DNA from: Lutispora thermophila DSM 19022
GTDB lineage: Bacteria > Bacillota > Clostridia > Lutisporales > Lutisporaceae
Reading direction: 5' to 3'
DNA: 24,000 nucleotides
Assembly: GCF_900142105.1 (NCBI RefSeq)
Contig: NZ_FQZS01000007.1
Span: forward strand, 68,248-92,247
Position numbers and translations under genes: made by a program. Position 1 is the first letter of the stretch, and every line of letters begins with the position of its first letter. The notes below the pieces were generated by a model. The model searched no databases. It was not told the origin of the DNA and saw only the letters and a program-made list of their open reading frames with translations. Of this stretch, positions 6,938-21,584 are shown in pieces.

Positions 6938-7528
6938 CTATTTATTAGTTGTGCAACAACCTCCACTTCTAAAATTCTTCACCTTTCCAATAATTATCAA
7001 AATACTTAATGCAAGTATCGATACAGATATGCAAAACGAAACCCAGCTCACTCTCAGCCCCATGGCCAGTAGCATAGCACATAATTCTACTGCAAGAATT
7101 TTTCTTGCTCGCTTTTTATATACTTCCTCTTCCATTTTATCCAAGGGCTTGTTGGCATCCTCCACAGGAGCAAGGGCATAGATGATTATTGCTGCAATCA
7201 TTGCTATACATACAATATTAAACCTTGTACAAGGAATAAGTTTTATTGCCAAAAGCACTGACATAGTTAATAATATGGAAAAAAAGTAACATTTTGATTG
7301 TGTCCTTGCATGATAACCTCCTGCAAATGACCTCAACGGAATGTATGCAATCATAAACAGAAGGCTTTGCCAAACCATATTGAACAAAAGGCCTATTGCT
7401 ATTGTTGTAAGGATATTCACAATTATTAATAATCCCTGTTTTAAACCATACTCATATAAGTCTCTGTCTTCAACTTTTATGGCTCCATTGGCAATGAGCC
7501 CATCCGCAATTTTATTAATCAAGTCCAT
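6938..7528 (-). CDS. agrB: AgrB-family accessory gene regulator protein B (AgrD-processing membrane peptidase)
   Basis: 196 aa, polytopic. The stretch IAYIPLRSFAGGYHARTQSKCYFFS carries the catalytic His and Cys of AgrB. Its ATG lies 6 nt after the agrD stop. Confidence 0.88.
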   Translation of the reverse strand: MDLINKIADGLIANGAIKVEDRDLYEYGLKQGLLIIVNILTTIAIGLLFNMVWQSLLFMIAYIPLRSFAGGYHARTQSKCYFFSILLTMSVLLAIKLIPCTRFNIVCIAMIAAIIIYALAPVEDANKPLDKMEEEVYKKRARKILAVELCAMLLAMGLRVSWVSFCISVSILALSILIIIGKVKNFRSGGCCTTNK

Positions 7529-7533
7529 ATCAA

Positions 7534-7677
7534 TCAGAATTTGCGCAAATTCTCTGCACCTTTAGGCAGTTTTGGTTGGTGAATTAAGCATATACATGTT
7601 GTATTTACGTTCATTGTTGTTATAAACAAGGCAAAACTGGCAATCAAACTACTCAACTTTATTAAAGCTTTTTTCAT
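7534..7677 (-). CDS. agrD: AgrD-like autoinducing-peptide precursor (47 aa, absent from the ORF track)
   Basis: Hand translation gives MKKALIKLSSLIASFALFITTMNVNTTCICLIHQPKLPKGAENLRKF*. GGGAGG sits 8 nt upstream of the ATG. It has an amphipathic N-terminus, a Cys-containing pentapeptide, then an HQPKxPK tail like clostridial AgrD (C. perfringens ...CLWFT-HQPEEPK..., from memory). Confidence 0.85.
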   Translation of the reverse strand: MKKALIKLSSLIASFALFITTMNVNTTCICLIHQPKLPKGAENLRKF

Positions 7678-7748
7678 TACCATTACCTCCCATAAATCTT
7701 TTCATTTAGTTTTATATTACATCAAAGATATCATTTAAGCGATTAGAT

Positions 7749-7786
7749 GGTAAAACTTATATATGTTTTTGGCAAAACTTACAGTT
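7749..7786 (-). promoter_or_regulatory. LytTR-type direct-repeat box A, upstream of agrD
   Basis: GGTAAAAC at 7749-7756 and GGCAAAAC at 7771-7778, period 22 bp. It shares a roughly 38-bp consensus with boxes B, C and D. A TAATAT -10 candidate lies downstream on the minus strand. Confidence 0.7.
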
Positions 7787-7792
7787 TTTTTC

Positions 7793-8296
7793 TTAAAAAG
7801 TATTAGCAAATCTTTGATTCTTGGGAAGAAGTTCATTAGCTAATTGTACTGCCTCATTCCAATCTTTAGATGGCGCAGAAATCATCCATCCATCAGCAGA
7901 ACTAAAACTATATACACCTGATTCATTGGGCTCAAATATTTTAATCATAATCTTTTCTAACTTATCTCCAAAATAAGCATGCAGAACTGTATCGCTATTC
8001 TTTAAGCCTGCCATTCTATCTTTATTTATTATCAATGTCATTTTAGTAAAGTCAAATCGTTGGTCTTCTACATCAATAGTGCCTTCAAATGCAATTCCCC
8101 CGTCTTTTGATGGCCTATATGTTCCATTAATTGATATGGTAATGGGTACCACATCTTCCCTATTTACCATCCTGAACTTAAGTCCGTATAAAGTAGTGTT
8201 TATTGATTTGGGAGACATATAATAATAATTACATGCAACATATATTAACAATATAATTACTATCAAAATACTGATTGACTTATCTGTAATTTCCAT
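7793..8296 (-). CDS. hypothetical N-terminally membrane-anchored or secreted protein
   Basis: 167 aa. GGGAGGAG RBS 10 nt upstream. One N-terminal hydrophobic helix (SISILIVIILLIYVA) followed by a soluble domain. No recognisable family. Confidence 0.7.
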   Translation of the reverse strand: MEITDKSISILIVIILLIYVACNYYYMSPKSINTTLYGLKFRMVNREDVVPITISINGTYRPSKDGGIAFEGTIDVEDQRFDFTKMTLIINKDRMAGLKNSDTVLHAYFGDKLEKIMIKIFEPNESGVYSFSSADGWMISAPSKDWNEAVQLANELLPKNQRFANTF

Positions 8297-8839
8297 TATT
8301 ATCTAGCTCCTCCCAAGTATTTCTTGGCCCAGTTCATAATATGAATTATACTTTTTAAATATATCATATCAATGTTACATTGATCATCATTTTGCTTAAC
8401 AGCATGAAAAGAGACTAAAATCTTTTATAGGTCTGCATACACATTGTTCCATATATAATCACTTCAAAACTCTTAAATCTGTGCTTTCTCTATTTATAAG
8501 CAAATTTTGTGTAAAATATCTCCTAACTAACATTATTTTTCGCTTCATTTTAAAATAAGAAAGGCTTACTATAAAAGTGTTTATATTTATCTAGGTAGCC
8601 TTTCTTGAAACCTATTACGGAAAGTACAAATTAAAAATTTATACATGTTTTTCCAATAACCTAACACTTTTTCAGAAAAATATATACAATGTACACATTA
8701 CAGCATCTTAAAAATCAATCAGTATATGTTGAAGCAAATGATAATTAAATTTAGTTTATCTTTATAAAATCCTCATGGAAAACAAGTATCACATATAAAA
8801 ATGTCTCTACCTTAAAAGATATCCTTTAAGGAATTGAAT

Positions 8840-8877
8840 AGCAAAACTTATATGTGTTTCTGGTAAAATTTAAAATT
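8840..8877 (-). promoter_or_regulatory. LytTR-type direct-repeat box B (no ORF immediately downstream)
   Basis: AGCAAAAC at 8840-8847 and GGTAAAAT at 8862-8869, period 22 bp. Its higher-coordinate flank matches the box C flank and its lower-coordinate flank (AAAGATATCNTTTAAG) matches the box A flank. Confidence 0.6.
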
Positions 8878-8943
8878 TTGAATTGATTAGCAGAAATGTC
8901 TTGTAAAATGAAAATTTCCGGTACCTGTTTGGTGAAGGGAGCT

Positions 8944-9027
8944 TTATTTGGCATATTGCTTAAAAAGCTTCTCATCATCAGATTTCAGTATCACAAAATT
9001 TTTCTCTTGAAGCTCCTCTGCTGTTTT
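8944..9027 (-). pseudogene. internally deleted relic of the ankyrin-repeat gene
   Basis: Translates KTAEELQEKNFVILKSDDEK|LFKQYAK*. This matches residues KTTDGLQEENSVILKSDDEK and the last residues IFKQYAK of the intact 153-aa gene, without the ankyrin repeats. A degenerate copy of that gene's terminator and spacer follows (8893-8945). Confidence 0.75.
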
Positions 9028-9073
9028 TTAAAAGGCAACTTTGTCACAAATTCTTCCGCAAACAAAATTTGCA

Positions 9074-9328
9074 TCACATCAGTCGTTCCTCTGGATCACG
9101 AAATGCATCACAAATTTTATCGCATATTCCATCACATATTCCATCACATACTGAAGCAACACAATCACATATCTTATCGCATACTATACCATCACATATT
9201 ACGACTTCACCGGGATCTGGAATACCGGCAACGATAAAGCTGAATTCAAGTCTGTTTTCCATCTCAGTAATGCTCAAATTTTCAACGGAATTCAAATTAA
9301 TTGAATTCAATATACCTTTGTTATCCAT
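9074..9328 (-). CDS. RiPP precursor paralog A3 (Cys-Asp tetrad-repeat peptide), probably frameshifted at its 3' end
   Basis: 84 aa. Same AAGGAGGTGAAATT RBS as A1. The leader differs from A1 at 3 of the first 38 residues. The core has 8 Cys in [I/V]CDx units. The ending RDPEERLM* is unrelated, while the adjacent frame (9028-9078) encodes CDANFVCGRICDKVAF*, homologous to the A2 tail. Confidence 0.8.
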   Translation of the reverse strand: MDNKGILNSINLNSVENLSITEMENRLEFSFIVAGIPDPGEVVICDGIVCDKICDCVASVCDGICDGICDKICDAFRDPEERLM

Positions 9329-9421
9329 AATTTCACCTCCTTTATTTTAATCTGATGCTTAATGTTTGGATTAATTGCTAATTTTATCTTACAATAAAAA
9401 AAGTCCCTAATGGGTTAATAT

Positions 9422-9459
9422 GGTAAAATTTACATATATTTTGGGTAAAATTTAAAGTT
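9422..9459 (-). promoter_or_regulatory. LytTR-type direct-repeat box C, upstream of precursor A3
   Basis: GGTAAAAT at 9422-9429 and 9444-9451, period 22 bp. It lies about 95-130 nt upstream of the A3 ATG. Confidence 0.7.
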
Positions 9460-9485
9460 CTGCTTTGGTTGGAAGGAATGTCTCG

Positions 9486-9524
9486 TAAAATGAAAACTCC
9501 CCTCACCTGTTTGGTGAAGGGAGT
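9486..9524 (-). terminator. intrinsic terminator ending the biosynthetic operon, after the ankyrin gene
   Basis: On the minus strand, ACTCCCTTCACC-aaaca-GGTGAGGGGAGT is followed by TTTTCATTTT, starting right after the TAA at 9526-9528. Confidence 0.8.
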
Positions 9525-9525
9525 T

Positions 9526-9987
9526 TTATTTGGCATATTGCTTAAAAATCTTCTTCAGGTAGGTGTTATCTCCTTCCATTACAAGATCATACACTGACTT
9601 TCCACTGGATGTTATAACATAAGGATCTGCTCCGGCTTCCAGCAATATTTTAGCCATATCGCAATTTCCCATTACCAGCACCATCTCAATAGGATATTGC
9701 CCTTCTGAATCCTGACTGTTTATATCAACTGTTCCACTGGCTAATATCCTCTTAACTAATGCAATGTTGTTCTCCAATACTGCCTGTGTTAACATATCAA
9801 TCGTAAATTCCATATTACTAACCCTTTTCTCATCATCAGATTTAAGAATCACAGAATTCTCTTCCTGAAGCCCGTCTGTTGTCTTTGAATCAGCAGATAA
9901 AACGATGTTGTTGAAGTTCAGTAACATGATCACTGACACAAATACTGCTGCTAAAACCATTGTTGCTCTCGAACCTTTATTTAGCAT
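9526..9987 (-). CDS. signal-anchored or secreted ankyrin-repeat protein
   Basis: 153 aa. N-terminal hydrophobic segment ATMVLAAVFVSVIMLL. Ankyrin-like repeats: NIALVKRILASGTVDINSQDSEGQYPIEMVLVMGNCDMAKILLEAGADP. Confidence 0.8.
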   Translation of the reverse strand: MLNKGSRATMVLAAVFVSVIMLLNFNNIVLSADSKTTDGLQEENSVILKSDDEKRVSNMEFTIDMLTQAVLENNIALVKRILASGTVDINSQDSEGQYPIEMVLVMGNCDMAKILLEAGADPYVITSSGKSVYDLVMEGDNTYLKKIFKQYAK

Positions 9988-10036
9988 ATAATATCTCCTC
10001 CTTATTCTATTTTATTTTTTAACACCCTTAATGATG

Positions 10037-11167
10037 CTATTGAGCACAATTATCAACCTCTTTTTTTCTTATAAAGCGATTATAGAACTCTAAAAACCTA
10101 TTTGTGATAGCTCTAAAAAGAATTATTACTAAATACATATAAAATAAATTCATTAAAAGTCTCACATTAAGTTTAATATTACTGAAATCCCTAAAGTATG
10201 ACACTATGAATTTTACAATCAAAGCACCTTTTTTAATTAAAATTATTGTGAATAAAAAATATAAGAAGTAGTAAATGTTGTTTGCAACTTTACCTATTTT
10301 ATTATTCTCATAATACTGCAAAACATCTCTGAAAAACCAATATCCATCTGTTCTCATGAAAGGATGAAAATTAAAATAAAAAGTATAAAAAAGCATATTT
10401 ATACATATTAGAAAAATGCTGTATTTAGTTACTATATATAAAATAATTAATAAAACCATATATATGCCTTGCGCAAACAATCCTGCAATATTAACCAAAA
10501 TTCTTTGTTTCAAATCAAGTTCATCTATCCCTGATACATTCGTAAACATAACTGGATATATCAAATATACGGAAAAACTGATAGGTCTTAATCCTATGCC
10601 GCAGTAGCTGCACATGTATGAATGTCCAAGTTCATGAAACATGATGCCAATTATAATAATCAATAATAAAGCAAAGAAATCTGATATGTAAAAATTATCT
10701 TCTTTTTGATAGGCTGAAAAAAAACTATTAAAAGGCAATCCTAAAACAGCCACCAGCAGAACAGAGATAGACACAAGTTTAAGCATGGTATTTTCCCTTA
10801 AATTATATAAAAAGCTGTGACCAAAAAGCTTTTCTTGAATACTGCTTGAAAGCACCTGAATTTGAGGATTAAATATTTTGCGTATTATATGCTTAAATTT
10901 TTTATTGAAACTTTCATACTGTCTTTCCTTTAACACTCCAAGATCAATCAATTTGTCAAATATAACCTGACTGTTTTCTATATTTAAAGATGTTAAATGC
11001 CTTAAATACTCTTCTTTATCACCTTTTTCAGGCAGAACGGATATGAGATAAGCCACTTCTTTACTTACCTTATAGCAAGATGTCTTGTTGATTATTAAAT
11101 TCCCATTTTTATAATCCGGCATATATTCATTTTTAAATACATTAACATATTCTGAGCCAGCTCTCAT
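10037..11167 (-). CDS. membrane-embedded zinc metalloprotease, M50/site-2-protease-like (YydH-like), with a cytosolic N-terminal domain
   Basis: 376 aa. HELGH at codons 178-182 (10622-10636) lies in a TM segment. NFHPFMRTDG matches the S2P signature NxxPxxxxDG. Multiple TM helices. The first ~90 aa resemble a PqqD-like winged-helix domain (VSKEVAYLISVL...VIFDKLIDLGVLKE). Confidence 0.75.
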   Translation of the reverse strand: MRAGSEYVNVFKNEYMPDYKNGNLIINKTSCYKVSKEVAYLISVLPEKGDKEEYLRHLTSLNIENSQVIFDKLIDLGVLKERQYESFNKKFKHIIRKIFNPQIQVLSSSIQEKLFGHSFLYNLRENTMLKLVSISVLLVAVLGLPFNSFFSAYQKEDNFYISDFFALLLIIIIGIMFHELGHSYMCSYCGIGLRPISFSVYLIYPVMFTNVSGIDELDLKQRILVNIAGLFAQGIYMVLLIILYIVTKYSIFLICINMLFYTFYFNFHPFMRTDGYWFFRDVLQYYENNKIGKVANNIYYFLYFLFTIILIKKGALIVKFIVSYFRDFSNIKLNVRLLMNLFYMYLVIILFRAITNRFLEFYNRFIRKKEVDNCAQ

Positions 11168-11194
11168 ATTATCACTCGCTTTTGTTTTGCATAA

Positions 11195-12613
11195 TTACAG
11201 ATGAGGAAATAGGAAATTTAAACTATCTATGCGATCATCCTGTTCTCGCTCAGTATATATATATTTGATGGCTTCATAAATTTCATCTTTCCTTGTGCTG
11301 CAATATGGGTTATATATACTTCCATTGTTTTCTCTAGCCTGAACGCCGCATTCTCCGGCACAAAGCAGTGAGATGGAACATTCCAAACACTTATCAAGAT
11401 TAAGCAGATTTCTGTTTAGGTAATCTTCTCTCAATGAGTTAAAATAAACCTCTCCATTTTTCAGGTATCCTATTTTATAATCATCCCTGCCTGCTTCCTC
11501 ATAGCAGCCGTATATGTCTCCATATGGGTCAATGAGAAAGTTATTGGGTATATTTTGCATGCAAAATCTTGTTTTTCTGAATGGTATGCCCCTTTGAATT
11601 TTCATAAGATATGCCAATCCCTCTGCTTTTCTTCTTATGGGATGTCTGATTTTGCTTTTTATATTGATTGATTCTATTGTTGCAGCGGCTTCCATATGTC
11701 CTACAAAAGAACTGTCATCTGTTTGCTTGAAGTGATTGTGCAAAGGATGCAGATAAATATATGCGTATGGATGATTTAAAATTTCTTCCTTTTCAAGAAA
11801 ATCGTACAAGAATGCCAGTTTTTCCAAAGAATTGGCATCAATATTTATTCTTATATTCAACTTTACTTTCCTATCCAGCATTAAATGGATATTCCTTACT
11901 ATTGTATCAAATGTTGGCTTTCCAGGCTCTGAAACTCTACTTGTATCGTGATCTTCTTGGTTGCCGTCTATTGATACTTGTATGAAGTTTATTTGGCCCG
12001 GCAGAGGACCAACCAAATCCAGGTAATGTTCCAATTGAGTACAATTGGATATGGCACCTACATTGATTGAATATTTATTGGAATACTCCAATACCCTTTC
12101 TACCACATCCCTATTCCTTTTTAAAAAAGGTTCTCCTCCATATAAGGTAATGTCCAGGTCTTCTCTTGAAACATCTCTATATAACTTTTCAAAATATATG
12201 CCAAACAATTGATCCACAAATTCTTTCGTCATAACCTTATTTTCTTTTTTTCCTCTAATTGGCTTCTGATAACAGTAATAGCAATTTAGATTACATGCAT
12301 ATGATAGTAGCAACATCAAGTTGCACTCTGAAAAATCATTTTTTAAATTAAACTCATCTATTTTCTTAACAAACTTAACAAACTCTTTCTTTTCTTCTTC
12401 AGGAGTAAGATTTGTTACATGCCCTCTTCTTTGCAGGAATTCAATTTCCACATCGGCAATATCCTGGGAAGATACCACTTTATCCTTATTGCTTAGAAGT
12501 TGGCCCATCTCTTTAGAAACCTCATCTATACATCCATTGAATCCATTAAATAACAGATATGTGTCTTTAAGAGGTATTATATTTAGATATTTGCTAACAT
12601 AATAGTTTTTCAT
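11195..12613 (-). CDS. radical SAM/SPASM-domain peptide maturase
   Basis: 472 aa. CNLNCYYC (CxxxCxxC) at 12272-12295. GGEPF SAM motif. C-terminal auxiliary-cluster cysteines include the CX2CX5CX3C motif CLECSISLLCAGEC and GDIYGC. A ~100-aa N-terminal extension precedes the rSAM core. Strong RBS GAGGAAGGAG. The start lies 20 nt inside the upstream gene. Confidence 0.9.
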   Translation of the reverse strand: MKNYYVSKYLNIIPLKDTYLLFNGFNGCIDEVSKEMGQLLSNKDKVVSSQDIADVEIEFLQRRGHVTNLTPEEEKKEFVKFVKKIDEFNLKNDFSECNLMLLLSYACNLNCYYCYQKPIRGKKENKVMTKEFVDQLFGIYFEKLYRDVSREDLDITLYGGEPFLKRNRDVVERVLEYSNKYSINVGAISNCTQLEHYLDLVGPLPGQINFIQVSIDGNQEDHDTSRVSEPGKPTFDTIVRNIHLMLDRKVKLNIRINIDANSLEKLAFLYDFLEKEEILNHPYAYIYLHPLHNHFKQTDDSSFVGHMEAAATIESINIKSKIRHPIRRKAEGLAYLMKIQRGIPFRKTRFCMQNIPNNFLIDPYGDIYGCYEEAGRDDYKIGYLKNGEVYFNSLREDYLNRNLLNLDKCLECSISLLCAGECGVQARENNGSIYNPYCSTRKDEIYEAIKYIYTEREQDDRIDSLNFLFPHL

Positions 12614-14444
12614 AATAAACTCCTTCCTCTATGAACCTTTTTGTATCCAATGCAGATAAAAAATATCCATAACGGGACACATTGCTTCCGTTAGCATAAA
12701 ATGGATGAGGCACATCATTTTTTATGAAATATTCATGAATATTGCCTTTATGAATCTTATAAAAGTTGCCTTTATAAAAATCGGAGAACCATTTTTCCAA
12801 CTGCGGCTTTTGTTCTAAAAATCTTTCATATACTTCATTTGAAAAGCCCAAGCTTTGTCTGATATCTATGTCAAATTTCTTGGCAGACAGATAAACTGCA
12901 AGCCCTTCATCATAATACTTTATTAACTCATGTGGCATATTCATGCTACGCCATATGCCAGCAGTCATGAAATGTGTTAGCTCATGGGTGATGAGTCTTA
13001 ATATATCTTGCTCATCAATCCTGTCATCAGAGAGCATTATAACACGGTTTGGGTTAAAGCAATTGCATGCATTGAAATTACCTAATAATATGCGCACTAT
13101 CTCAATGTTATCAATATCTTTAAGAAAAACATCTTTGTTAATACCGAACAAAGTTTCAATTTCACCGGATAAATATTCACGGATATCTATTATATCTTTT
13201 TTTTCTATTGGGGTTATTTTTTTACTTGACAAAAATTCTTTATATCTGTAATATGAGTTACTATCCAGATTAGGCATGTCCAAGCTGTAAGTTGAAAATA
13301 TTTTTCTCAACTCTGGAAGGCCTCGGGTTAAATAATCAACATAATTATCGCAGCTTAAAATGATGTTCCTTATATGATCTGAGTGATTTGTGATATTAAT
13401 ATCAGGTTCCTTAATGGATGTTTTTATATTTGCAGATATGGGCTCATTTGTTATTTCACTTTCAATTTTAAAAGCAATAGTTTTTATAAATTCAGTATAT
13501 TCTTTCAAAAGTGATAAATCAATTTCCTCCGCTCCAAATTTACTAAAAGGAATGCCATTGTGAAAATGATTAATCTTAATAAACAGGCTTATGCTTGGTC
13601 TGTTTTCTTTTACCAGAGTTACACCTTCGCATACTCCAAAGGGAATTTCCGCTTTATACTTTTCATCTAACTGATGCATAACTCCTTCAGGGATAAACTT
13701 ATCCAGCTCTACACCATTTTGTTTTGTGCGTATACCGAAGCCATTATTGCTGTTTATCGATGAGTCTATGGCATCCATAGATATAAAATATAGATCCCTA
13801 TCATAAATTATGTTTAAAAACTCATACAATCCTGAATGACTTACCTCTTCATTAAGCGTCAAAAGTCCGTAATACTTATCAGCATAGTTTTCATATTTCA
13901 TCAGATATATGATAAGAGCAGCATTCAATATATTATCTAAGTTCCAATTTGTCAAAGTATCATTTTTTAATACAGGAGACCCATCATAATGGATGACAAG
14001 TTCACCTGAATCATAAGTTTTTATCAAATCATTATGAGCTTTAAAAAACAATGTGACGCCATCCATGCCACTTCTATGACAATGCTCTACCTCAAGTTGA
14101 TCTATACTTTCATACATTCCCGGCAAAAACACTCCAAAATTTCTGCCCACTAAATATTTTGAAGTTCTATGTCCGTACAATTTTGAGTACATATATTCCT
14201 CATCTTGACTATAGTAAAGCCTTCCTCCAGGATGATCGAGATGAGCCTGAAAGCATATCCTATTATTTTTTATTTTTTCTTGGGAATCCTCTCCTAAAAA
14301 AATATTACCGTTCCTTGTAATAAAAAAAGGTATGTTTCCTAATATAGAAGCTAAAATAGCTTTCGTCGTTTCATTCCATTTATGAAAGGGAACAATATGC
14401 AATCTGGACAGTTCTTTAACAATTTTATGATATTCTTGTATCAT
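12594..14444 (-). CDS. two-domain putative leader peptidase: N-terminal co-catalytic (M42/M20-like) aminopeptidase fold plus C-terminal HExxH zincin domain
   Basis: 616 aa. Ordered motifs AHLDHPG (H68/D70), NLDN (D170), NEEVSH (E199/E200), SMDAID and INHFH mirror the M42 metal ligands. HELTH at codons 487-491 (12972-12986) is followed by YDEGLAVY. Overlaps the rSAM gene, implying translational coupling. Confidence 0.6.
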   Translation of the reverse strand: MIQEYHKIVKELSRLHIVPFHKWNETTKAILASILGNIPFFITRNGNIFLGEDSQEKIKNNRICFQAHLDHPGGRLYYSQDEEYMYSKLYGHRTSKYLVGRNFGVFLPGMYESIDQLEVEHCHRSGMDGVTLFFKAHNDLIKTYDSGELVIHYDGSPVLKNDTLTNWNLDNILNAALIIYLMKYENYADKYYGLLTLNEEVSHSGLYEFLNIIYDRDLYFISMDAIDSSINSNNGFGIRTKQNGVELDKFIPEGVMHQLDEKYKAEIPFGVCEGVTLVKENRPSISLFIKINHFHNGIPFSKFGAEEIDLSLLKEYTEFIKTIAFKIESEITNEPISANIKTSIKEPDINITNHSDHIRNIILSCDNYVDYLTRGLPELRKIFSTYSLDMPNLDSNSYYRYKEFLSSKKITPIEKKDIIDIREYLSGEIETLFGINKDVFLKDIDNIEIVRILLGNFNACNCFNPNRVIMLSDDRIDEQDILRLITHELTHFMTAGIWRSMNMPHELIKYYDEGLAVYLSAKKFDIDIRQSLGFSNEVYERFLEQKPQLEKWFSDFYKGNFYKIHKGNIHEYFIKNDVPHPFYANGSNVSRYGYFLSALDTKRFIEEGVYYEKLLC

Positions 14445-14494
14445 AACATTTATCCTTTCTTTCGCTTTAATATCATGTTATTTCCATCATCAGT

Positions 14495-14803
14495 CTACCA
14501 GATGACCTTGTCACAGAATCTTCCGCAAACGAAATTTACATCGCATGGATATATTGTGTCACAAAAAACATCACAAACTTTATCACATATCTTGTCACAG
14601 ATATCCCCACAAATCTTATCGCATACTTTATCACAAATAGGACTGCAAATTACATCACATACACCGGTTGTACACTCAGGGCGGATTATATCTAAAATTG
14701 ATATGTCCATAATCGAATAGACAATTCTTTCTTCAGATTTTTCCAATATTAGATTGTCTTCATTGAACAGGTTAATAGTTCTAATAATATTATTCATAAA
14801 CAT
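14495..14803 (-). CDS. RiPP precursor A2 (13-Cys Cys-Asp tetrad-repeat peptide)
   Basis: 102 aa as tracked. The likely true start is the third codon (ATG at 14797), 7 nt after GGGGG. Cys-free leader ...IRTINLFNEDNLILEKSEERIVYS.... Core CTTGVCDVICSPICDKVCDKICGDICDKICDKVCDVFCDTIYPCDVNFVCGRFCDKVIW. Confidence 0.85.
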   Translation of the reverse strand: MFMNNIIRTINLFNEDNLILEKSEERIVYSIMDISILDIIRPECTTGVCDVICSPICDKVCDKICGDICDKICDKVCDVFCDTIYPCDVNFVCGRFCDKVIW

Positions 14804-14881
14804 TCCCCCAAGTTATATTTTCACATTATTCAATTTGCATAACCTGTCTAATAAACATCCGAAAGAACTAATTGAGGATTA

Positions 14882-14920
14882 CTCAAACTCATCTTTGCCC
14901 CAGCCAAAGATGAGTTTGAG
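14882..14920 (-). other. 15-bp perfect stem-loop between precursor A1 and A2 (partial terminator or RNA stabiliser)
   Basis: CTCAAACTCATCTTT (14882-14896), 9-nt loop, AAAGATGAGTTTGAG (14906-14920). There is no U-tract on either strand. Confidence 0.6.
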
Positions 14921-14954
14921 TATGTAACCTTAATTATTTTGCAAAATCAAATTG

Positions 14955-15188
14955 CTACCAAATTGCATCGCATATTTGTCCACATATTTGATCACATATT
15001 GCATCACATACTGCGGAGATGCAGTCACATATCTTATCACATACAATAGCATCACATATTCTACCATCATAATAATCCGGAACACCAGCAAAGATAAAGC
15101 TGAATTCAAGTCTGTTCTCCATTTCAGTAATACTTAAATTCTCAACTGAATTTAGGTTAATTGAGTTCAATATGCCTTTGTTTTCCAT
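14955..15188 (-). CDS. RiPP precursor A1 (8-Cys Cys-Asp tetrad-repeat peptide)
   Basis: 77 aa. RBS AAGGAGGTGAAATT. Leader MENKGILNSINLNSVENLSITEMENRLEFSFIFAGVPD. Core GRICDAIVCDKICDCISAVCDAICDQICGQICDAIW. Confidence 0.88.
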   Translation of the reverse strand: MENKGILNSINLNSVENLSITEMENRLEFSFIFAGVPDYYDGRICDAIVCDKICDCISAVCDAICDQICGQICDAIW

Positions 15189-15282
15189 AATTTCACCTCC
15201 TTTATTTCTGTTTTACTTCATGCGTTATTTATTGATAGCTATTTTTAGCTTATAATAAAAAAGCCCCCTAATGGGGGAAAGT

Positions 15283-15320
15283 GGTAAAACTTATACACAT
15301 TTTTGGTAAAATTTAAAATT
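15283..15320 (-). promoter_or_regulatory. LytTR-type direct-repeat box D, upstream of the precursor A1/biosynthetic operon
   Basis: GGTAAAAC at 15283-15290 and GGTAAAAT at 15305-15312, period 22 bp. A TATTAT/TATAAG -10 candidate lies at about 15249-15257 on the minus strand. Confidence 0.72.
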
Positions 15321-15375
15321 ATGTTTGTTTAGGAAATATATTTGTAGTAAGGCCTTCAGCTTGGATTTCTTATTT

Positions 15376-16671
15376 CTAAAAACTATGACAAAAATTATAT
15401 AAAAGAACATCTGCATAAAACATAGAGTCTGTATGTTGTATGGTTATCGCTCCATTATATTTGCCAATGGCCTTTTTTACACTCTTTAAACCAAATCCAT
15501 GATTTTCTTTATCTCTATGAGTCGTCTTAAGATCGCTGTTTTCATAGACAAGATTTCCGTCAAAGGGATTTGAGATGCTAATATAAAGAACATTTCTATC
15601 TAGCTTGATAGAAGCTTTAATGGTTTTATCCCTTTCCAATTTTGATACCGCCTCTATAGCATTATCAAACAAATTGCCAAGAATTATGCTCAAATCAAAA
15701 GGCTGGATATCTAATTTCTCAGGCATGTTCAATTCCAAATCCACTTCTATGCCAAGCTTTTTTGCCTCATTTATCTTATAATTCAATATACTATCTACCG
15801 GCATATTGCCGGATTTGATATGATTGTTTGATTCTCCGATTAAATCAAAAATTCTATGTAAATATTCCAAAGCACCTTTATTGTCGTTTTTTTCTATTAG
15901 GACCTGTAAAACTGAGATATGATTTTTTATATCATGTCTGAGAATCTTTATATTCTCATTAGATTGATTAATAATGTCAAGTTGTTTTATATAAGCATTA
16001 TTCTGCTGGTGCAGCAATTCTTTTTCTATTTTTTCGTTATAAGATCTTATCAAAGCATCATATAAATAAAATACAAAAACATTAATAATGAATAATATTG
16101 ATATACTTATCAAAATAAAATACAATTTGTATTGAGCTTCTATAGTTATCAAAATAAAGGTGGAAAAGAGAGTTCCTACAGGTATTAAAATTATTGCAAT
16201 CCAATGCATAGGAGAAATGTTTATATCATTTTTTATCATTTTGAAATTTGATAAAGCAAGCATGATCATATATGAAATTATCTTTGTACTAATTAGTGCA
16301 GCTATTAATTCTACATTGGCATCATCGCTTAATTGATTTAAGTTCATAGATTTTAACCCATACACTGTTAAAGCTTCAACAGACAGCAATATTGCATATA
16401 TGTAAATCGTTGCAATAAGTCTTGACTTCAATGAAGCTGGATAATTAAACGTTAGCAAGAAAAATAGAATAAGATTTGAAATTAAATTAACACCTGGATT
16501 GTTAAACATAATGTAAATAATAGCTATAGATAGATAATAAAGTATATAAGATATGAATTCAAAATTTTTGCTGACTGCATCATTTTCAAAGAAAAAAGTC
16601 ATAAATTTGAAAATTATATAAGTACCAAAGATATTTGACAGAAGATAAATAATATCGTAATTATCAAGCAT
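15376..16671 (-). CDS. AgrC-like (HPK10-type) membrane sensor histidine kinase
   Basis: 431 aa. About 6 N-terminal TM helices. H-box LRHDIKNHISVL, N-box LGNLFDNAIEA, G-box HGFGLKSV. Its start overlaps the response-regulator stop by 8 nt. Confidence 0.88.
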   Translation of the reverse strand: MLDNYDIIYLLSNIFGTYIIFKFMTFFFENDAVSKNFEFISYILYYLSIAIIYIMFNNPGVNLISNLILFFLLTFNYPASLKSRLIATIYIYAILLSVEALTVYGLKSMNLNQLSDDANVELIAALISTKIISYMIMLALSNFKMIKNDINISPMHWIAIILIPVGTLFSTFILITIEAQYKLYFILISISILFIINVFVFYLYDALIRSYNEKIEKELLHQQNNAYIKQLDIINQSNENIKILRHDIKNHISVLQVLIEKNDNKGALEYLHRIFDLIGESNNHIKSGNMPVDSILNYKINEAKKLGIEVDLELNMPEKLDIQPFDLSIILGNLFDNAIEAVSKLERDKTIKASIKLDRNVLYISISNPFDGNLVYENSDLKTTHRDKENHGFGLKSVKKAIGKYNGAITIQHTDSMFYADVLLYNFCHSF

Positions 16672-17395
16672 TGTTATTAACCTCTTTCTGTCTCATCTGC
16701 AAAAGCTTGTCTCTCACAGCCTTTCTGTTATGTTGGCTAATGGGCAGTATCACATTATTGGATATCCTAACTTTATCATATTGCACTTCAACTATGTGAT
16801 CATAATTTACCAGATATGATTTATGAATGGATATGAAAGGCGCTCCTCTAATCTGCCTTTGTATTATTGACAATTTGGAATAATATTCCTCTATGGTATC
16901 TTTCATAATAATGCGGATTTTTTTACCCATACTTTCAAAATATAAAATATTATTTATCGGTATTCTATAAAAACAATGACCCTTTTGATATTCAAAAATA
17001 ATGCCATTATTACGTAAAAGTCTTAAGGCTGTCATAAATACTTTCTGGATTTTCTCATATGTAAGAGGTTTTATTAGGAAATTGAGAGGCCTTATATCGA
17101 AAAGTTCCATGGCATAGCTGTCTTTTCCTGACACATAAACTATATGGGTGATATCATTAGCTATTACTTCTCTTATGAGTTTACCAATTCTTATTCCATT
17201 CATGGTCTTTAGGTCAATATCTAAAAATATTACATCATAATACACTCCTTCATGTAATGACTGGCATAATTTTTCTCCAGAATAGAATGTCTCTACAGAT
17301 ATTTCCTCGCAAAAGGTCTGTCCTATTTCCAATAATACATTTTCCATGTAGGCACATATAGCTTTCTCATCATCACATATAGCTACATTAATCAT
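16664..17395 (-). CDS. LytTR-family response regulator (AgrA-like)
   Basis: Start trimmed to the ATG at 17395 (AAGGAGGTG RBS), giving MINVAICDDEK.... REC domain with DVIFLDIDL. C-terminal LytTR domain ILYFES...ISIHKSYLVNYDHI. Confidence 0.9.
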   Translation of the reverse strand: MINVAICDDEKAICAYMENVLLEIGQTFCEEISVETFYSGEKLCQSLHEGVYYDVIFLDIDLKTMNGIRIGKLIREVIANDITHIVYVSGKDSYAMELFDIRPLNFLIKPLTYEKIQKVFMTALRLLRNNGIIFEYQKGHCFYRIPINNILYFESMGKKIRIIMKDTIEEYYSKLSIIQRQIRGAPFISIHKSYLVNYDHIVEVQYDKVRISNNVILPISQHNRKAVRDKLLQMRQKEVNNNA

Positions 17396-17498: not shown

Positions 17499-17640
17499 CT
17501 TGTATTTGGTAAAATAGGGACAAAGTAGGATGATAGTGAAATGCTTCAAGCTAGCAACTCAAATGCAACACTAACAAAAAAACAAGGAGAACATTTTCTT
17601 CATCCCTCTCTGGTTAATTGATCTTGGATAAATTAAGAAG

Positions 17641-17679
17641 GCTGATGGATAACTGACTGCTTGTCAGTTATCCATCAGC
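17641..17679 (-). terminator. hairpin terminator after the hsp20 gene
   Basis: Perfect 17-bp stem GCTGATGGATAACTGAC / GTCAGTTATCCATCAGC with a 5-nt loop. Weak T-run (CTTCTTAATTT) on the minus strand. Confidence 0.6.
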
Positions 17680-17690
17680 CCCTATTAATA

Positions 17691-18143
17691 CTATTTGATC
17701 TCTATTCTGTTTCTCTTCTTTGGAGTTGGTTCCTTTTTAGGCAGCACTATTGTTAGGACTCCGTTTTCAAACTTTGCAGTAACCTTGTCTTCGATTACAT
17801 TTTCTACATAGAAGCTTCTGCAGAAGCTGCCGCTTCTTCTTTCTCTTCTAATGTAGTTCTCCTTTTCCACATTTATTTCCTCGTTTCTTTCTACAGCAAT
17901 GGTAAGCCTGTCATTGTCAAGTTCAATGTTTATATTTTCCTTGTTTACTCCTGGCAAATCTGCTTCTACAATGTATTCCCTATCATTTTCCTTTACATCC
18001 ACTCTCATCTGAGTGTTCTCCATGAACCAAGCTGGCATAAAGGAATCATTGAAGAAATCGTCAAATAAATTATCTATGTCGAAAATATCTCTGCTTTTGT
18101 TAGCCAGTGATTTATTTCTTCTGCCATATGGAATTAGAAACAT
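17691..18143 (-). CDS. Hsp20/alpha-crystallin family small heat-shock protein
   Basis: Start trimmed to the ATG at 18143 (GGAGGTG RBS 7 nt upstream). Alpha-crystallin domain VDVKENDREYIVEADLPGVNKENINIEL...GVLTIVLPK. Confidence 0.9.
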   Translation of the reverse strand: MFLIPYGRRNKSLANKSRDIFDIDNLFDDFFNDSFMPAWFMENTQMRVDVKENDREYIVEADLPGVNKENINIELDNDRLTIAVERNEEINVEKENYIRRERRSGSFCRSFYVENVIEDKVTAKFENGVLTIVLPKKEPTPKKRNRIEIK

Positions 18144-18162
18144 ATGAAACACCTCCAACTAA

Positions 18163-18400: not shown

Positions 18401-19579
18401 TTATCTCTTTACTATTAATGAAGTACCTTGGCCTCCGCCTATGCAAAGAGTTGCAAGACCAGTCTTAGCATCTCTCTTTACCATTTCATGAAGCAATGTT
18501 ACCAATATTCTCGTTCCGGAGCATCCGATAGGATGACCCAAAGCTATTGCTCCACCGTTTACGTTAGTTTTCTCAGGATCCAATCCAAGATCTCTTACAA
18601 CAGCTATGGATTGAGCTGCAAAAGCTTCATTAGCTTCTACCAAATCTATGTCATCAATAGTCATATTTGCTTTTTCTAGTGCCTTTCTGGAAGCTGGTAC
18701 AGGTCCATATCCCATGATTGTTGGATCAACGCCTGCTGAAGCAAAGGATACTATTGTTGCCATAGGCGTGATTCCAAGCTCTTCTGCTTTTTCTTTTGAC
18801 ATGAGCACTACTGCAGCTGCTCCGTCATTTATTCCTGAAGCATTTCCTGCTGTAACTGTTCCATCTTTCTTGAAAGCAGGTTTCAGTTTTGCCAATGCCT
18901 CTAATGTTGTACCAAAGCGAGGATGCTCATCTGTATCAACTATAACAGGATCTCCTTTTTTCTGTGGGATTTCAACGGGCACTATCTCATCCTTAAATCT
19001 TCCGCTCTTTATAGCCTTCTCTGCTTTCAACTGGCTCTCTAAGGCGAACTTATCCTGGTCTTCTCTTGTTATGTTCCATTTTTCTGCTATGTTCTCTGCG
19101 GTAATTCCCATATGATAATTGTTGAATACATCAGTAAGACCATCATATACCATGTAATCAACAACAGCTCCGTCTCCCATTCTATGACCCCATCTTGCAT
19201 TCTTCAACAGATAGGGAGCCATACTCATGTTCTCAGTACCTCCTGCTACAACCACATCAGCTTCTCCCAACATAATAGCCTGAGCACCAAGGCTTACTGT
19301 TTTCAAACCCGAGCCACATACCTTATTTATAGTCATAGATGGCACTTCAGCGGGTATTCCTGCAGCAATTGATACTTGTCTTGCTACATTCTGACCGAGA
19401 CCAGCCTGAAGCACGCTGCCGAATATGACTTCATCCACCATTTCAGGTTTAACATTAGCTCTAGCCATTGCTTCTTTTACAACTGTTGCTCCTAATTTTA
19501 TCGGAGATACATCTTTAAAACTTCCTCCAAAAGTTCCAATAGCAGTTCTTACAGCACTAACTATAACGACTTCTCTCAA
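18401..19579 (-). CDS. acetyl-CoA C-acetyltransferase (thiolase II)
   Basis: 392 aa. [20 protein letters not shown]-terminus, active-site [10 protein letters not shown]-terminal GHPIGCSG and CIGGGQG. Confidence 0.95.
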
Positions 19580-19877: not shown

Positions 19878-21584
19878 TCATATGTTCTTTATATTGATTC
19901 CATATTTTTTTATTTTCTTGTAAAGACCCGTCCTATGGATCCCTAGAAGCTTTGCTGCTTCTGTCCTATTTCCGTTTGTTTTTTCCAGCGCTTCAATAAT
20001 TGCGTCAAGCTCTGTATCGATAACTCTAGTCTTCAGACAGGATTTATCAGCTTTTGAAACTCTGTCTTTAACATTGCTCTTTATATAATCCGGCAAATCC
20101 TCCAGAGTGATGAGATTACCTGAAGACATATTTGCCGCTCTCTCAAGCACATTTCGCAACTCTCTCACATTACCTGGCCAACTATGCAATTTCAAGGCTT
20201 CCACCGCCCTATCAGTAACGGTTTTATAGGTAAAACCCATATTCCTTACCAACTGACTTAATATTTCATCGCACAATACAGGTATATCATCCATTCTTTC
20301 TCTCAAAGGCGGAATGTTTATCTCCACCACGTTAAGCCTATAGAACAAGTCATTTCTAAATTTTCCTTGTTTTACTGCCGTCTTCAGGTTTTCATTGGTA
20401 CAAGCAATAATCCTAACATCTATCTTTACCTTTGTGTTTCCGCCTATTCTTTCTATTTCCCTTTCTTCCAATACCCTGAGAAGCTTTGCCTGCATACTCA
20501 TAGGCATGGAGGAAATCTCATCCATCAATACTGTCCCTCCGTTAGCAAGCTCCAACTTCCCTATTTTCCCTTCCTTTTTGGCACCGGTAAATGCTCCTCC
20601 TTCATATCCAAAAAGTTCTGATTCCAACAACTCATGGGGTATTGCTGCGCAGTTTATCTGCACAAAAGGAGCATATCTCCTGTTGCTGGCATTATGTATA
20701 GCATGGGCAAAAAACTCTTTGCCTGTACCGCTTTCTCCCTGAATTAATACAGTTGAATCCGAATTAGCAACCCTGGCAGCAAACTCTTTAAGTTCAATCA
20801 TGTCAACATTTTGAGTTATTATATTTTCAAAGGTGTACTTTGCACTATACATCTTGCTTATTTCATTCCTATACTTATTAACAGTCTTCTCCAGCATTTC
20901 CACCTTCTTGGTAATTGCTCTTAACTCCTCAATATTTCTAAAAAGCACAGTGCCTATTGCCCCTATGACTTCGCCATCTTCAATTATGGGAATTCTGTTT
21001 GCCAGCATGTCACGTCCCTGTATTCTCTGGATTTCACATAATTCTTTTTGTCCTGTCTTTACAACAACATGAAGTCTGGTGTTTTCTATAGCTTCATCAA
21101 CATGTTTTCCCAACACGTCTTCTTCCTTTATTCCTAGCAGCTTTTCGTAACACCACTTGAGTACCCTTCCTTCTTTATCAACCAGGACCATGCCTTGATA
21201 CACATTATCTACTATATCTTTCATGGCATCAAGACTTCGTATCAGTTCTTCCATCTTAGAATATCTGTCACCGTTTTTCAAATCTTTAAAAATCAGAATG
21301 TGAAAATTATATTCTTCTGAAAAGGATAACTTTCTTTTTTTAACTTTTAATTTTCTATCCCCTATTAGAATATCCTTATCTATATGGTTATCTTCCTTCA
21401 GCATTTCTTCTAGTCCATATTTCTTCAATTGAGCCATTATAATATGGGATTCATTATTTTTTATATCAAATATATGCATTAAGTGATTATTTATTGTTAT
21501 TTTATCTTCAGAATGGTATACCAGTACTCCTTCTGATAACTCATCCAATAGGCTATGCAAATTTGAAAGATAACTGTTTACCAT
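19878..21584 (-). CDS. sigma54-dependent transcriptional activator (PAS sensor + AAA+ + Fis-type HTH)
   Basis: 568 aa. Walker A GESGTGKE, sigma54-contact [20 protein letters not shown]-terminal [26 protein letters not shown]. Confidence 0.92.

Follow-up and report, generated by a model that had tools for sequence, protein, structure and literature searches.

A candidate agr-controlled RiPP cluster in Lutispora thermophila, with tetrad Cys-acid repeat precursors and a rare, unnamed radical-SAM/SPASM enzyme family

What is made by a gene cluster in which peptides built from four-residue Cys-acid repeats are encoded beside a radical S-adenosylmethionine (rSAM) enzyme, metallopeptidase-type proteins and a quorum-sensing circuit, and how would its expression be controlled? 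This question is raised by a locus in a 24,000-nucleotide stretch of DNA, referred to here as the window, whose source is Lutispora thermophila DSM 19022 (Clostridia) and whose proteins are exact matches to NCBI records. All elements of the cluster, from a response regulator through to a precursor gene that we call A3, are present from 17449 down to 9074 on the minus strand, to which all cluster features described below belong. An earlier, sequence-only reading of the window had listed these elements and claimed the full anatomy of an rSAM/SPASM pathway to a peptide that is made on the ribosome and modified after translation (RiPP), wired to quorum sensing. Each listed open reading frame (ORF) and element was found on the minus strand where it had been placed; precursors, maturase and metallopeptidase-type proteins are all there; and AgrB, AgrD, a kinase and a LytTR regulator form an agr-type circuit around the cluster. 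The extent of 9028-17395 given in that reading takes in the listed elements but is incomplete, since AgrD, AgrB and two LytTR-type promoters fall outside it. We consider, with moderate confidence, that the locus is an agr-controlled RiPP cluster, probably turned on according to cell density, employing a rare, unnamed rSAM/SPASM family, with Cys-acid thioethers as the likeliest product. The argument starts from what was observed: the identities of the domains, the motifs, the synteny and co-occurrence of the genes, and the rarity of the family.

The enzyme at the centre of the locus is a 472-residue protein (11195-12613), the gene for which overlaps that of a 616-residue partner protein by 20 nucleotides (nt). 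It contains CX3CX2C at residue 107, CX13GX4C at 351, CX2CX5CX3C at 409 and C438, and it passes both Pfam Radical_SAM (PF04055; 43.1 bits, cut-off 29.5) and NCBIfam SPASM (TIGR04085; 44.2 bits, cut-off 27); with its Radical_SAM domain, CX3CX2C motif and seven-Cys SPASM domain it belongs to the rSAM/SPASM superfamily. It fell below the cut-off of every NCBIfam equivalog model, including those for CefB (NF038107; 126.3 bits against 600), geopeptide (TIGR04280; 125 against 400), TIGR04463 (117 against 525), PapB (NF047865; 113.1 against 340) and SCIFF (TIGR03974; 80 against 425); a QhpD-type model gave 65 bits. Because the domain models are passed and no equivalog model is, the protein is regarded as a peptide maturase of an unnamed family. 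Its alignments to the CefB, geopeptide and Clo7bot profiles start at residue 6-7, and the nearest solved structure is that of CteB (5wgg; E = 3.4e-12), the thioether-forming SCIFF maturase. The family is small, with 51 members among 5.8 billion protein clusters.

Membership of the CXXX-repeat, CefB, PapB, SCIFF and sulfatase-maturase families was ruled out by the curated cut-offs. The suggestion in the sequence-only reading that the locus belongs to the "CXXX-repeat target family" is accordingly not upheld: TIGR04115 matched the enzyme over two short stretches (49.2 bits, cut-off 350), and neither the 616-residue protein nor the precursors had an NCBIfam match. That reading had also held that its idea would fail if the enzyme fell firmly among the anaerobic sulfatase maturases; the score against TIGR03942 was 88 bits, against a cut-off of 349, and below those of several peptide-maturase models.

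The putative substrates are encoded by three small genes. Precursor A1 (77 residues; 14955-15188), annotated by NCBI as a hypothetical protein, has AGGAGG before its ATG, a leader beginning MENKGILNSINLNSVENLSITEMENRLEFS... and the core RICDAIVCDKICDCISAVCDAICDQICGQICDAIW. Precursor A2 (100 residues; 14495-14797) has a second type of leader, MNNIIRTINLFNEDNLILEKSEERIVYS, and 13 Cys residues, and its sequence and start are identical to those of the NCBI annotation WP_073025355.1. Precursor A3 (84 residues; 9074-9328) is a paralogue of A1 with an aberrant tail, …ICDAFRDPEERLM. No NCBIfam model matched A1, A2 or A3 at E <= 0.01; similar peptides recur beside homologous enzymes at other loci. As read from sequence, these small ORFs behave as real genes under purifying selection; between A2 and its orthologue in an 85%-identical relative there are 29 synonymous and 13 non-synonymous codon differences, and the leaders differ from those of this relative by 9-11 synonymous and 2 non-synonymous codons. 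Repeat statistics were compiled from 13 precursors of the family, which contain 138 Cys residues and 125 Cys-Cys intervals. Asp follows Cys directly in 97 of the 138 cases, Ile or Val directly precedes it in 96, and the spacing between successive Cys residues is 4 in 80 of the 125 intervals. The fourth position of the repeat is variable, with I/V, C and D fixed; the next Asp after a Cys-Asp pair lies at +5; and acidic residues are plentiful in every core, usually in smaller numbers than Cys. A leader motif, (I/L)xSINLNxVENL..E.E.R.EF, is common to the family, including a divergent locus, L013.

The second defining component is the 616-residue partner (12594-14444), which has no hydrophobic segment and which is predicted to combine an M42/TET aminopeptidase fold with an HExxH...E zincin-like domain. 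It had no match in Pfam or NCBIfam at E <= 0.01, its C-terminal half matched nothing in NCBIfam at E <= 1, and sequence searches of the PDB with the whole protein and with that half returned chance-level matches only (antibody chains, KaiA, RRF). Its AlphaFold (AF2) model, with a predicted local distance difference test (pLDDT) value of 82, was matched by Foldseek to PhTET1 (2wyr; E = 3.3e-12, TMt 0.65) and TmPep1050 (4p6y; E = 1.1e-11), and in the model a TET/M42 fold carries the His, Asp, Glu-Glu and His residues of a dinuclear site. By sequence the Lutispora protein falls outside M42 (PF05343); a distant homologue (P0066) passes that Pfam model (32.6 bits against 23.2), the homologue at locus L012 has a "weak" precomputed M42 match, and the partner-family profile reaches standalone proteins that pass Pfam M42. 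The C-terminal 270 residues, modelled at pLDDT 91, contain HELTH and a downstream Glu. H68, D70, D170, E199, E200 and H295 do not vary among the 26 full-length homologues aligned, the most distant of which are approximately 17% identical, and the same holds for the HExxH...E residues H487, E488, H491 and E513; this conservation of both metal sites argues for two active metalloenzyme domains. The description of the protein as dual-peptidase-like in the sequence-only reading therefore appears reasonable, given the modelled M42/TET fold, the HExxH...E domain and the invariant metal sites. The C-terminal domain has a weak, non-significant resemblance to M1/M61 zincins and to an HExxH oxygenase; an oxygenase role is thought unlikely because the host is, we assume, an obligate anaerobe. 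At a distant locus (L023, 3368-5023), a 551-residue partner-like protein overlaps an rSAM gene (enzyme 36% identical), lacks HxDH and HExxH and is encoded next to a pair of YcaO genes; it may represent the partner in a non-catalytic, scaffold form.

Precursor, partner and rSAM enzyme occur as a set at about a dozen loci across all public data. The partner proved strikingly rare: a word-based search gave 8 clusters, a profile run against 1.84 billion representatives gave 78 proteins (about 35 full length), and scans turned up 5 loci in 185,579 species genomes and 5 further loci in JGI metagenomes; a search for precursor homologues gave 4 clusters and no further loci. At every locus that carries it, the partner gene abuts and overlaps the rSAM gene. 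Where nearby precursors could be found, tandem (I/V)-C-(D/E)-x peptides lie near the enzyme pairs (L001, L007/L016, L011, L012, L015, L019 and L020/L021). L020/L021 has the reverse gene order and a partner only 27% identical, with the tetrad precursors kept, and many units in L020 are C-E rather than C-D. L013, with an rSAM enzyme 40% identical, keeps the leader motif and has neither partner nor tetrads, and so would fit a possible pattern in which the partner tracks the tetrads and the leader tracks the rSAM enzyme, within the clade with rSAM identity of 40% or lower. No clear precursors were found at L014, L022, L023 and L024. Relatives in Candidatus Vecturithrix have C-(D/S)-S-D-x pentads, a Gly-Gly leader and a C39 ABC exporter. 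In Dethiothermospora halolimnae (L003/L008), the partner-rSAM pair stands alone between ligA and gatCAB, and no precursor, M50-like protease or regulator was found within 8-10 kb of it; its substrates must be encoded elsewhere, or the enzyme pair must be orphaned.

The regulatory genes frame this biosynthetic core. An AgrA-like response regulator (REC plus LytTR; 16664-17395; Pfam Response_reg 48 bits, LytTR 57.5 bits) lies in an ORF open from 17449, and since its REC domain does not start before residue 22 the start is likely to be at 17395; a sigma-70-like promoter, TTGAGA-18-TATAAT, is found at 17498-17469. Its gene overlaps by 8 nt that of an AgrC-like membrane histidine kinase (15376-16671; GHKL-type HATPase_c_5 in Pfam, 87 bits), the N-terminus of which is polytopic, with several hydrophobic segments between residues 37 and 210. 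The kinase did not reach the NCBIfam AgrC equivalog, which is staphylococcal (28 bits, cut-off 500); the pairing of a polytopic HPK10-type kinase with a REC-LytTR regulator is that of an agr system. At the other end of the locus lie the genes for AgrD, an autoinducing-peptide precursor of 47 residues from the ATG at 7677 (7534-7677; ...MNVNTTCICLIHQPKLPKGAENLRKF), which passes NCBIfam TIGR04223 (47.9 bits, cut-off 19) and has GGGAGG 8 nt upstream of its ATG, and for AgrB, the AgrD-processing membrane peptidase (6938-7528; Pfam AgrB PF04647, 137.9 bits, cut-off 23). Because agrD and agrB follow the last promoter copy, the biosynthetic genes lie between the parts of a complete agr system. The order is agrD-agrB, the reverse of the staphylococcal agrB-agrD, and the usual AgrD layout, applied to the predicted sequence ...NTTCICLIHQPKLPKG..., points tentatively to a five-residue ring, C-I-C-L-I. 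Independent support for the quorum-sensing circuit comes from two related loci: in L001, a Clostridiaceae metagenome-assembled genome that is the 85%-identical relative mentioned above, A1 comes directly after an agrD copy driven by a box, and beyond the ankyrin gene there is a second set of box, agrD and agrB, and in L019 an AgrC fragment directly precedes A1. The L001 agrD copies (1239-1382; 7368-8077 region) differ by few residues (…CICLIHQ… and …CIWLIHQ…). Immediately after agrB in L001, at 8198-15494, there is a class I lanthipeptide cluster (LanB, LanC, flavoprotein, CPBP protease and ABC transporter), and one agr system may control two RiPP clusters there.

Regulators of the agr type bind paired direct repeats approximately 12 nt apart, upstream of target promoters. 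Candidate sites with this architecture were sought as the pattern TTTTACC-N14-RTTTTRC on the coding strand. Box D (15284-15311), TTTTACC-N14-AAGTTTTAC in a 21-bp register, is an exact match upstream of A1; box C (9423-9450), also exact, lies upstream of A3; box B (8841-8868) matches the pattern within a remnant of a duplicated cassette; and box A (7750-7777), upstream of agrD-agrB, has one mismatch. The four sites stand upstream of gene starts as paralogous copies: the promoter modules align, TAA(A/G)TTTT(A/G)CC repeats in the 21-bp register are common to all, and after each box come a -10-like element and the start of a gene (agrD-agrB, a 167-residue protein, A3 and A1, respectively). Upstream of the genes for regulator and kinase no such box turned up; the sigma-70-like promoter lies there instead. 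An equivalent of box A stands upstream of agrD in L001 (7263-7290). Every promoter module also has, between its second repeat and its -10 element, a short GC-rich palindrome with a T-run after it; that of box D, CCCCCATTAGGGGGCTTTTTT (15255-15279), was flagged by a terminator scan, and such palindromes could be terminators of the upstream gene or features of the promoter spacer. The 167-residue protein (7793-8296) is membrane anchored, has no family match and begins about 545 nt downstream of box B, and no convincing ORF or Rfam match was found in the interval between them (8297-8840). A truncated homologue of it lies upstream of the L001 cluster.

A further candidate control element is a perfect 18-bp stem-loop without a U-tract between A1 and A2 (14880-14922; free energy (dG) -34.2 kcal/mol, z -6.25), which none of 200 shuffles equalled in stability. 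Its role is probably that of a partial terminator or of a structure that stabilises the mRNA, and it probably lifts the ratio of precursor to enzyme transcript. A scan of the whole window with Rfam matched no family.

We propose the following account of regulation, of chemistry and of the division of labour among the proteases. AgrB would turn AgrD into a cyclic autoinducer, which the AgrC-like kinase would sense before phosphorylating the LytTR regulator; the latter would then bind the four paralogous direct-repeat boxes and thereby drive agrDB (autoinduction), the gene for the 167-residue membrane protein, A3 and the operon A1-A2-partner-rSAM-M50-ankyrin. The rSAM enzyme would recognise the conserved leader, (I/L)xSINLNxVENL...E.E.R.EF, and modify each Cys in the tandem (I/V)-C-(D/E)-x core. 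The likeliest reaction is the formation of ranthionine thioethers, in which a side-chain carbon of Asp or Glu becomes bonded to the sulfur of Cys; PapB and QhpD make such links, and the result would be a ladder of small rings. Candidates for the ring register are the adjacent Asp (CX0D), the Asp of the next unit (CX4D) and the preceding Asp (DX2C). The translationally coupled partner and an M50-like protease would remove or trim the leader, or otherwise process the core.

By analogy, then, multiple thioethers from Cys sulfur to Asp/Glu side chains are most likely. They are favoured because the nearest characterised relatives of the enzyme make non-alpha thioethers, because PapB and QhpD in particular make Cys-Asp and Cys-Glu links, and because acidic residues are abundant in all cores and one is conserved beside almost every Cys, with Asp and Glu interchanging. 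In the published systems, freyrasin/PapB and QhpD, Cys sulfur is joined to the Asp beta-carbon (PMC9413430, PMC11002830); PapB makes six such thioethers, accepts Glu and tolerates spacings from CX0D to CX6D (PMC9413430, PMC11002830). The Asp/Glu interchange of L020 matches this acceptor tolerance (PMC9413430), and the Lutispora precursors show the PapB-type pairing of Cys with a downstream Asp or Glu at a spacing other than CX3D. Our literature search by core peptides, accessions and family names found no publication on this family. The sequence-only reading had missed PapB and QhpD as the closest chemical precedent.

A bolder form of this proposal, which we put forward tentatively and think doubtful as a whole, is that the locus represents an undescribed RiPP class, in which an rSAM/SPASM enzyme and an obligatory M42-zincin partner act on (I/V)-C-(D/E)-x repeats to give an agr-controlled secreted factor of thermophilic anaerobes, the product being either a ladder of small rings or many repeat-derived units. 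The ladder form of that reading would have, for example, seven-membered CX0D rings or DX2C rings, which are unseen in natural products.

Other chemistries must be weighed against Cys-acid thioethers. Sactisynthases share the rSAM/SPASM architecture, there is a weak match to SkfB (E = 3e-4) and the cores are rich in Cys; it can therefore be envisioned that the enzyme links the Cys sulfur to a neighbouring alpha-carbon and that Asp serves solubility or recognition. We regard this as unlikely, since the best profiles and the best solved homologue belong to maturases that are unclassified or that make non-alpha thioethers (PapB 113, SCIFF 80 and QhpD-type 65 bits; CteB) and since the Asp that follows 97 of 138 Cys residues, replaced by Glu in a distant clade, is what would be expected of an acceptor carboxylate (PMC9413430). 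Quite unlikely, in our view, is a multi-core precursor that the partner would cut into many small units, such as a cyclised Cys-Asp di- or tetrapeptide. Comparable cases would be the ustiloxin-type repeat precursors of fungi or small molecules derived from peptides, and such an arrangement would suit a two-protease fusion strictly and translationally coupled to the rSAM enzyme, the invariance of both its active sites, the variability of the fourth repeat position beside fixed I/V, C and D, and a cluster that encodes no exporter for a large peptide. However, spacings of 2, 5 and 6 make the repeats imperfect; no cleavage signal between units is recognisable; and the order of the irregularities is kept between orthologues, such as the central CDC(V/I)xxVCD and the aromatic C-terminus ...CDx(I/F)(W/F/L), which suggests that the core acts as one unit. 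It is very unlikely that the peptides simply bind metal or Fe-S clusters while the rSAM enzyme epimerises them, makes formylglycine from Cys or leaves Cys alone and the partner is a scaffold: although Cys and Asp are both metal ligands, the sulfatase-maturase model gives 88 bits and the partner-like protein of a distant clade lacks catalytic motifs, that score lies below those of several peptide maturases and far under its own cut-off of 349, the leader-plus-core design with a conserved leader motif is typical of cross-linked RiPPs, and within the clade with tetrad peptides the partner keeps its catalytic residues invariant.

Several observations weigh against the agr-controlled, thioether-forming cluster that we prefer. 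As the rSAM enzyme lies under every equivalog cut-off, the type of bond is an analogy. The Cys-Asp spacing varies across the family, and the C-x-x-D pentads of Vecturithrix leave no single ring register evident; the ring register is therefore not fixed across the family. The HExxH domain of the partner has no significant solved relative, its weak matches include a 2-oxoglutarate-dependent HExxH oxygenase, and the protein of the distant clade that lacks metal-binding motifs leaves room for a scaffold role. No exporter is encoded within the Lutispora cluster. With regard to regulation, a loose form of the box pattern reached at least 4 matches in 6 of 100 shuffles, and the boxes are not four independent observations, because they arose as paralogous copies and a 165-nt duplication includes box B. 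Finally, regulation varies: agr genes accompany the cluster in Lutispora and close relatives, whereas other family members (L012 and Vecturithrix) adjoin sigma-54 two-component systems, so that the quorum-sensing wiring is specific to the Lutispora lineage.

Two further genes complete the proposed operon. Downstream of the rSAM gene is that for a putative 376-residue M50/site-2-protease-like intramembrane metalloprotease (10037-11167), with HELGH at residue 178, NFHPFMRTDG at 266, about 5-6 hydrophobic segments and a cytoplasmic N-terminal domain of about 120 residues. It scored 26.5 bits against Pfam M50 (PF02163), just below the cut-off of 27.2, with HExxH and NxxPxxxxDG present, and 62.6 bits against NCBIfam daptide_HExxH (NF041824; cut-off 300). 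A gene of this type follows the rSAM gene in L001, L011, L012, L013, L015 and L016; it does so in most clostridial loci. The last gene encodes a small ankyrin-repeat protein (9526-9987; Pfam Ank_4/Ank_5) with a signal- or anchor-like hydrophobic segment at residues 5-33; the protein is also found in L001 and L011, and a terminator-like hairpin stands at its end (9488-9531; dG -25.6 kcal/mol, z -5.19).

Downstream of A3 lies the remnant of a duplicated cassette (8808-9079), consisting of an out-of-frame A2-type tail, a deleted ankyrin gene, a second terminator and box B. The tail (9038-9079) is 86% identical to 14505-14546; the ankyrin start (8969-9031) is 81% identical to 9827-9889 and an internal deletion has fused it to that gene's last part; and the second terminator with its LytTR-type promoter (8808-8972) is 78% identical to 9390-9554. 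This arrangement points to a tandem duplication followed by a deletion. A3 ends in …CDAFRDPEERLM in place of …CDx(I/F)(W/F/L), and the gene may be decaying. On the other side of the cluster there is an hsp20 gene (17691-18158), just downstream of which a very strong 20-bp hairpin (17638-17682) sets the cluster apart from hsp20, a thiolase gene (18401-19579) and a sigma-54 activator (19878-21584).

The family signature has three parts, namely tetrad Cys-acid precursors, an rSAM/SPASM enzyme and an M42-HExxH fusion, and it lies outside Pfam, NCBIfam and the literature searched. If Cys-Asp thioethers were formed at a four-residue period, the ring topologies of ranthipeptides would be extended and a possible new peptide-stapling enzyme would become available; PapB is already pursued for stapling. 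The partner is a new combination of two metalloenzyme domains. In addition, with the agr circuit embedded in the cluster, a synthetic autoinducer could switch on an otherwise silent cluster in DSM 19022, a type strain that can be cultured. We therefore see the cluster as a well-defined and attractive target, rather than as a surprise of principle.

Among known systems, PapB and QhpD share with the Lutispora locus an rSAM/SPASM enzyme and a leader-bearing, Cys-rich peptide in which Cys is paired with acidic residues, and the Lutispora leader contains Asn, a residue of the PapA leader that has been proposed as needed for recognition. Unlike PapB, with its native CX3D spacing, the Lutispora system has a four-residue tandem repeat with Asp directly after Cys. 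To our knowledge, an M42-HExxH partner, an M50-like protease and an ankyrin protein do not occur in PapB clusters. CefB, TIGR04463, geopeptide and Clo7bot (TIGR04334) gave the best profile scores, in nearly whole-protein matches that include the N-terminal domain, and these systems likewise have precursors with periodic Cys residues. They differ from the Lutispora peptides, in which Cys recurs at every fourth residue; a spacing of five is seen only in the Vecturithrix relatives. The likeness to the CXXX-repeat family (TIGR04115) is that the Lutispora precursors, too, consist of C-x-x-x units in tandem and are served by an rSAM/SPASM enzyme; NCBIfam models exist for a CXXX-repeat modification-system protein and for the repeat peptide. 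Judged by its sequences, the Lutispora family is parallel to that family and not identical with it.

For SCIFF/CteB, which provides the closest solved structure, there is also a regulatory likeness, since clostridial SCIFF ranthipeptides have been linked to agr: ranthipeptide knock-outs in C. beijerinckii alter agr expression, according to the summary in PMC8102284 of work by Chen et al. (2020). SCIFF precursors, however, have six Cys residues and no tetrads, and in Lutispora the agr genes and LytTR-type boxes are physically inside the cluster. The embedding of an rSAM peptide operon under peptide quorum sensing is reminiscent of the streptococcal RaS-RiPPs, which are under shp/rgg control (PMC9389541); the receptor there is the cytoplasmic Rgg, in contrast to the AgrCA two-component system of Lutispora, and the rSAM families and chemistry differ. 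Metalloproteases of the two kinds also have precedents in RiPP clusters, in the M50-like daptide intramembrane protease and in the M42 peptidase ChrP, encoded in the chryseobasin cluster of the multinuclear non-heme iron-dependent oxidative enzyme (MNIO) type (PMC11002830), although the M42-like domain of Lutispora, unlike ChrP, shares a chain with an HExxH domain and has an rSAM enzyme coupled to it. The concept of placing an rSAM RiPP whose precursors are rich in Cys under the control of peptide quorum sensing is thus already known; what is new in Lutispora is a family without a curated model, its four-residue Cys-acid repeats, the fused M42-HExxH partner and an agr circuit with its boxes embedded in the cluster.

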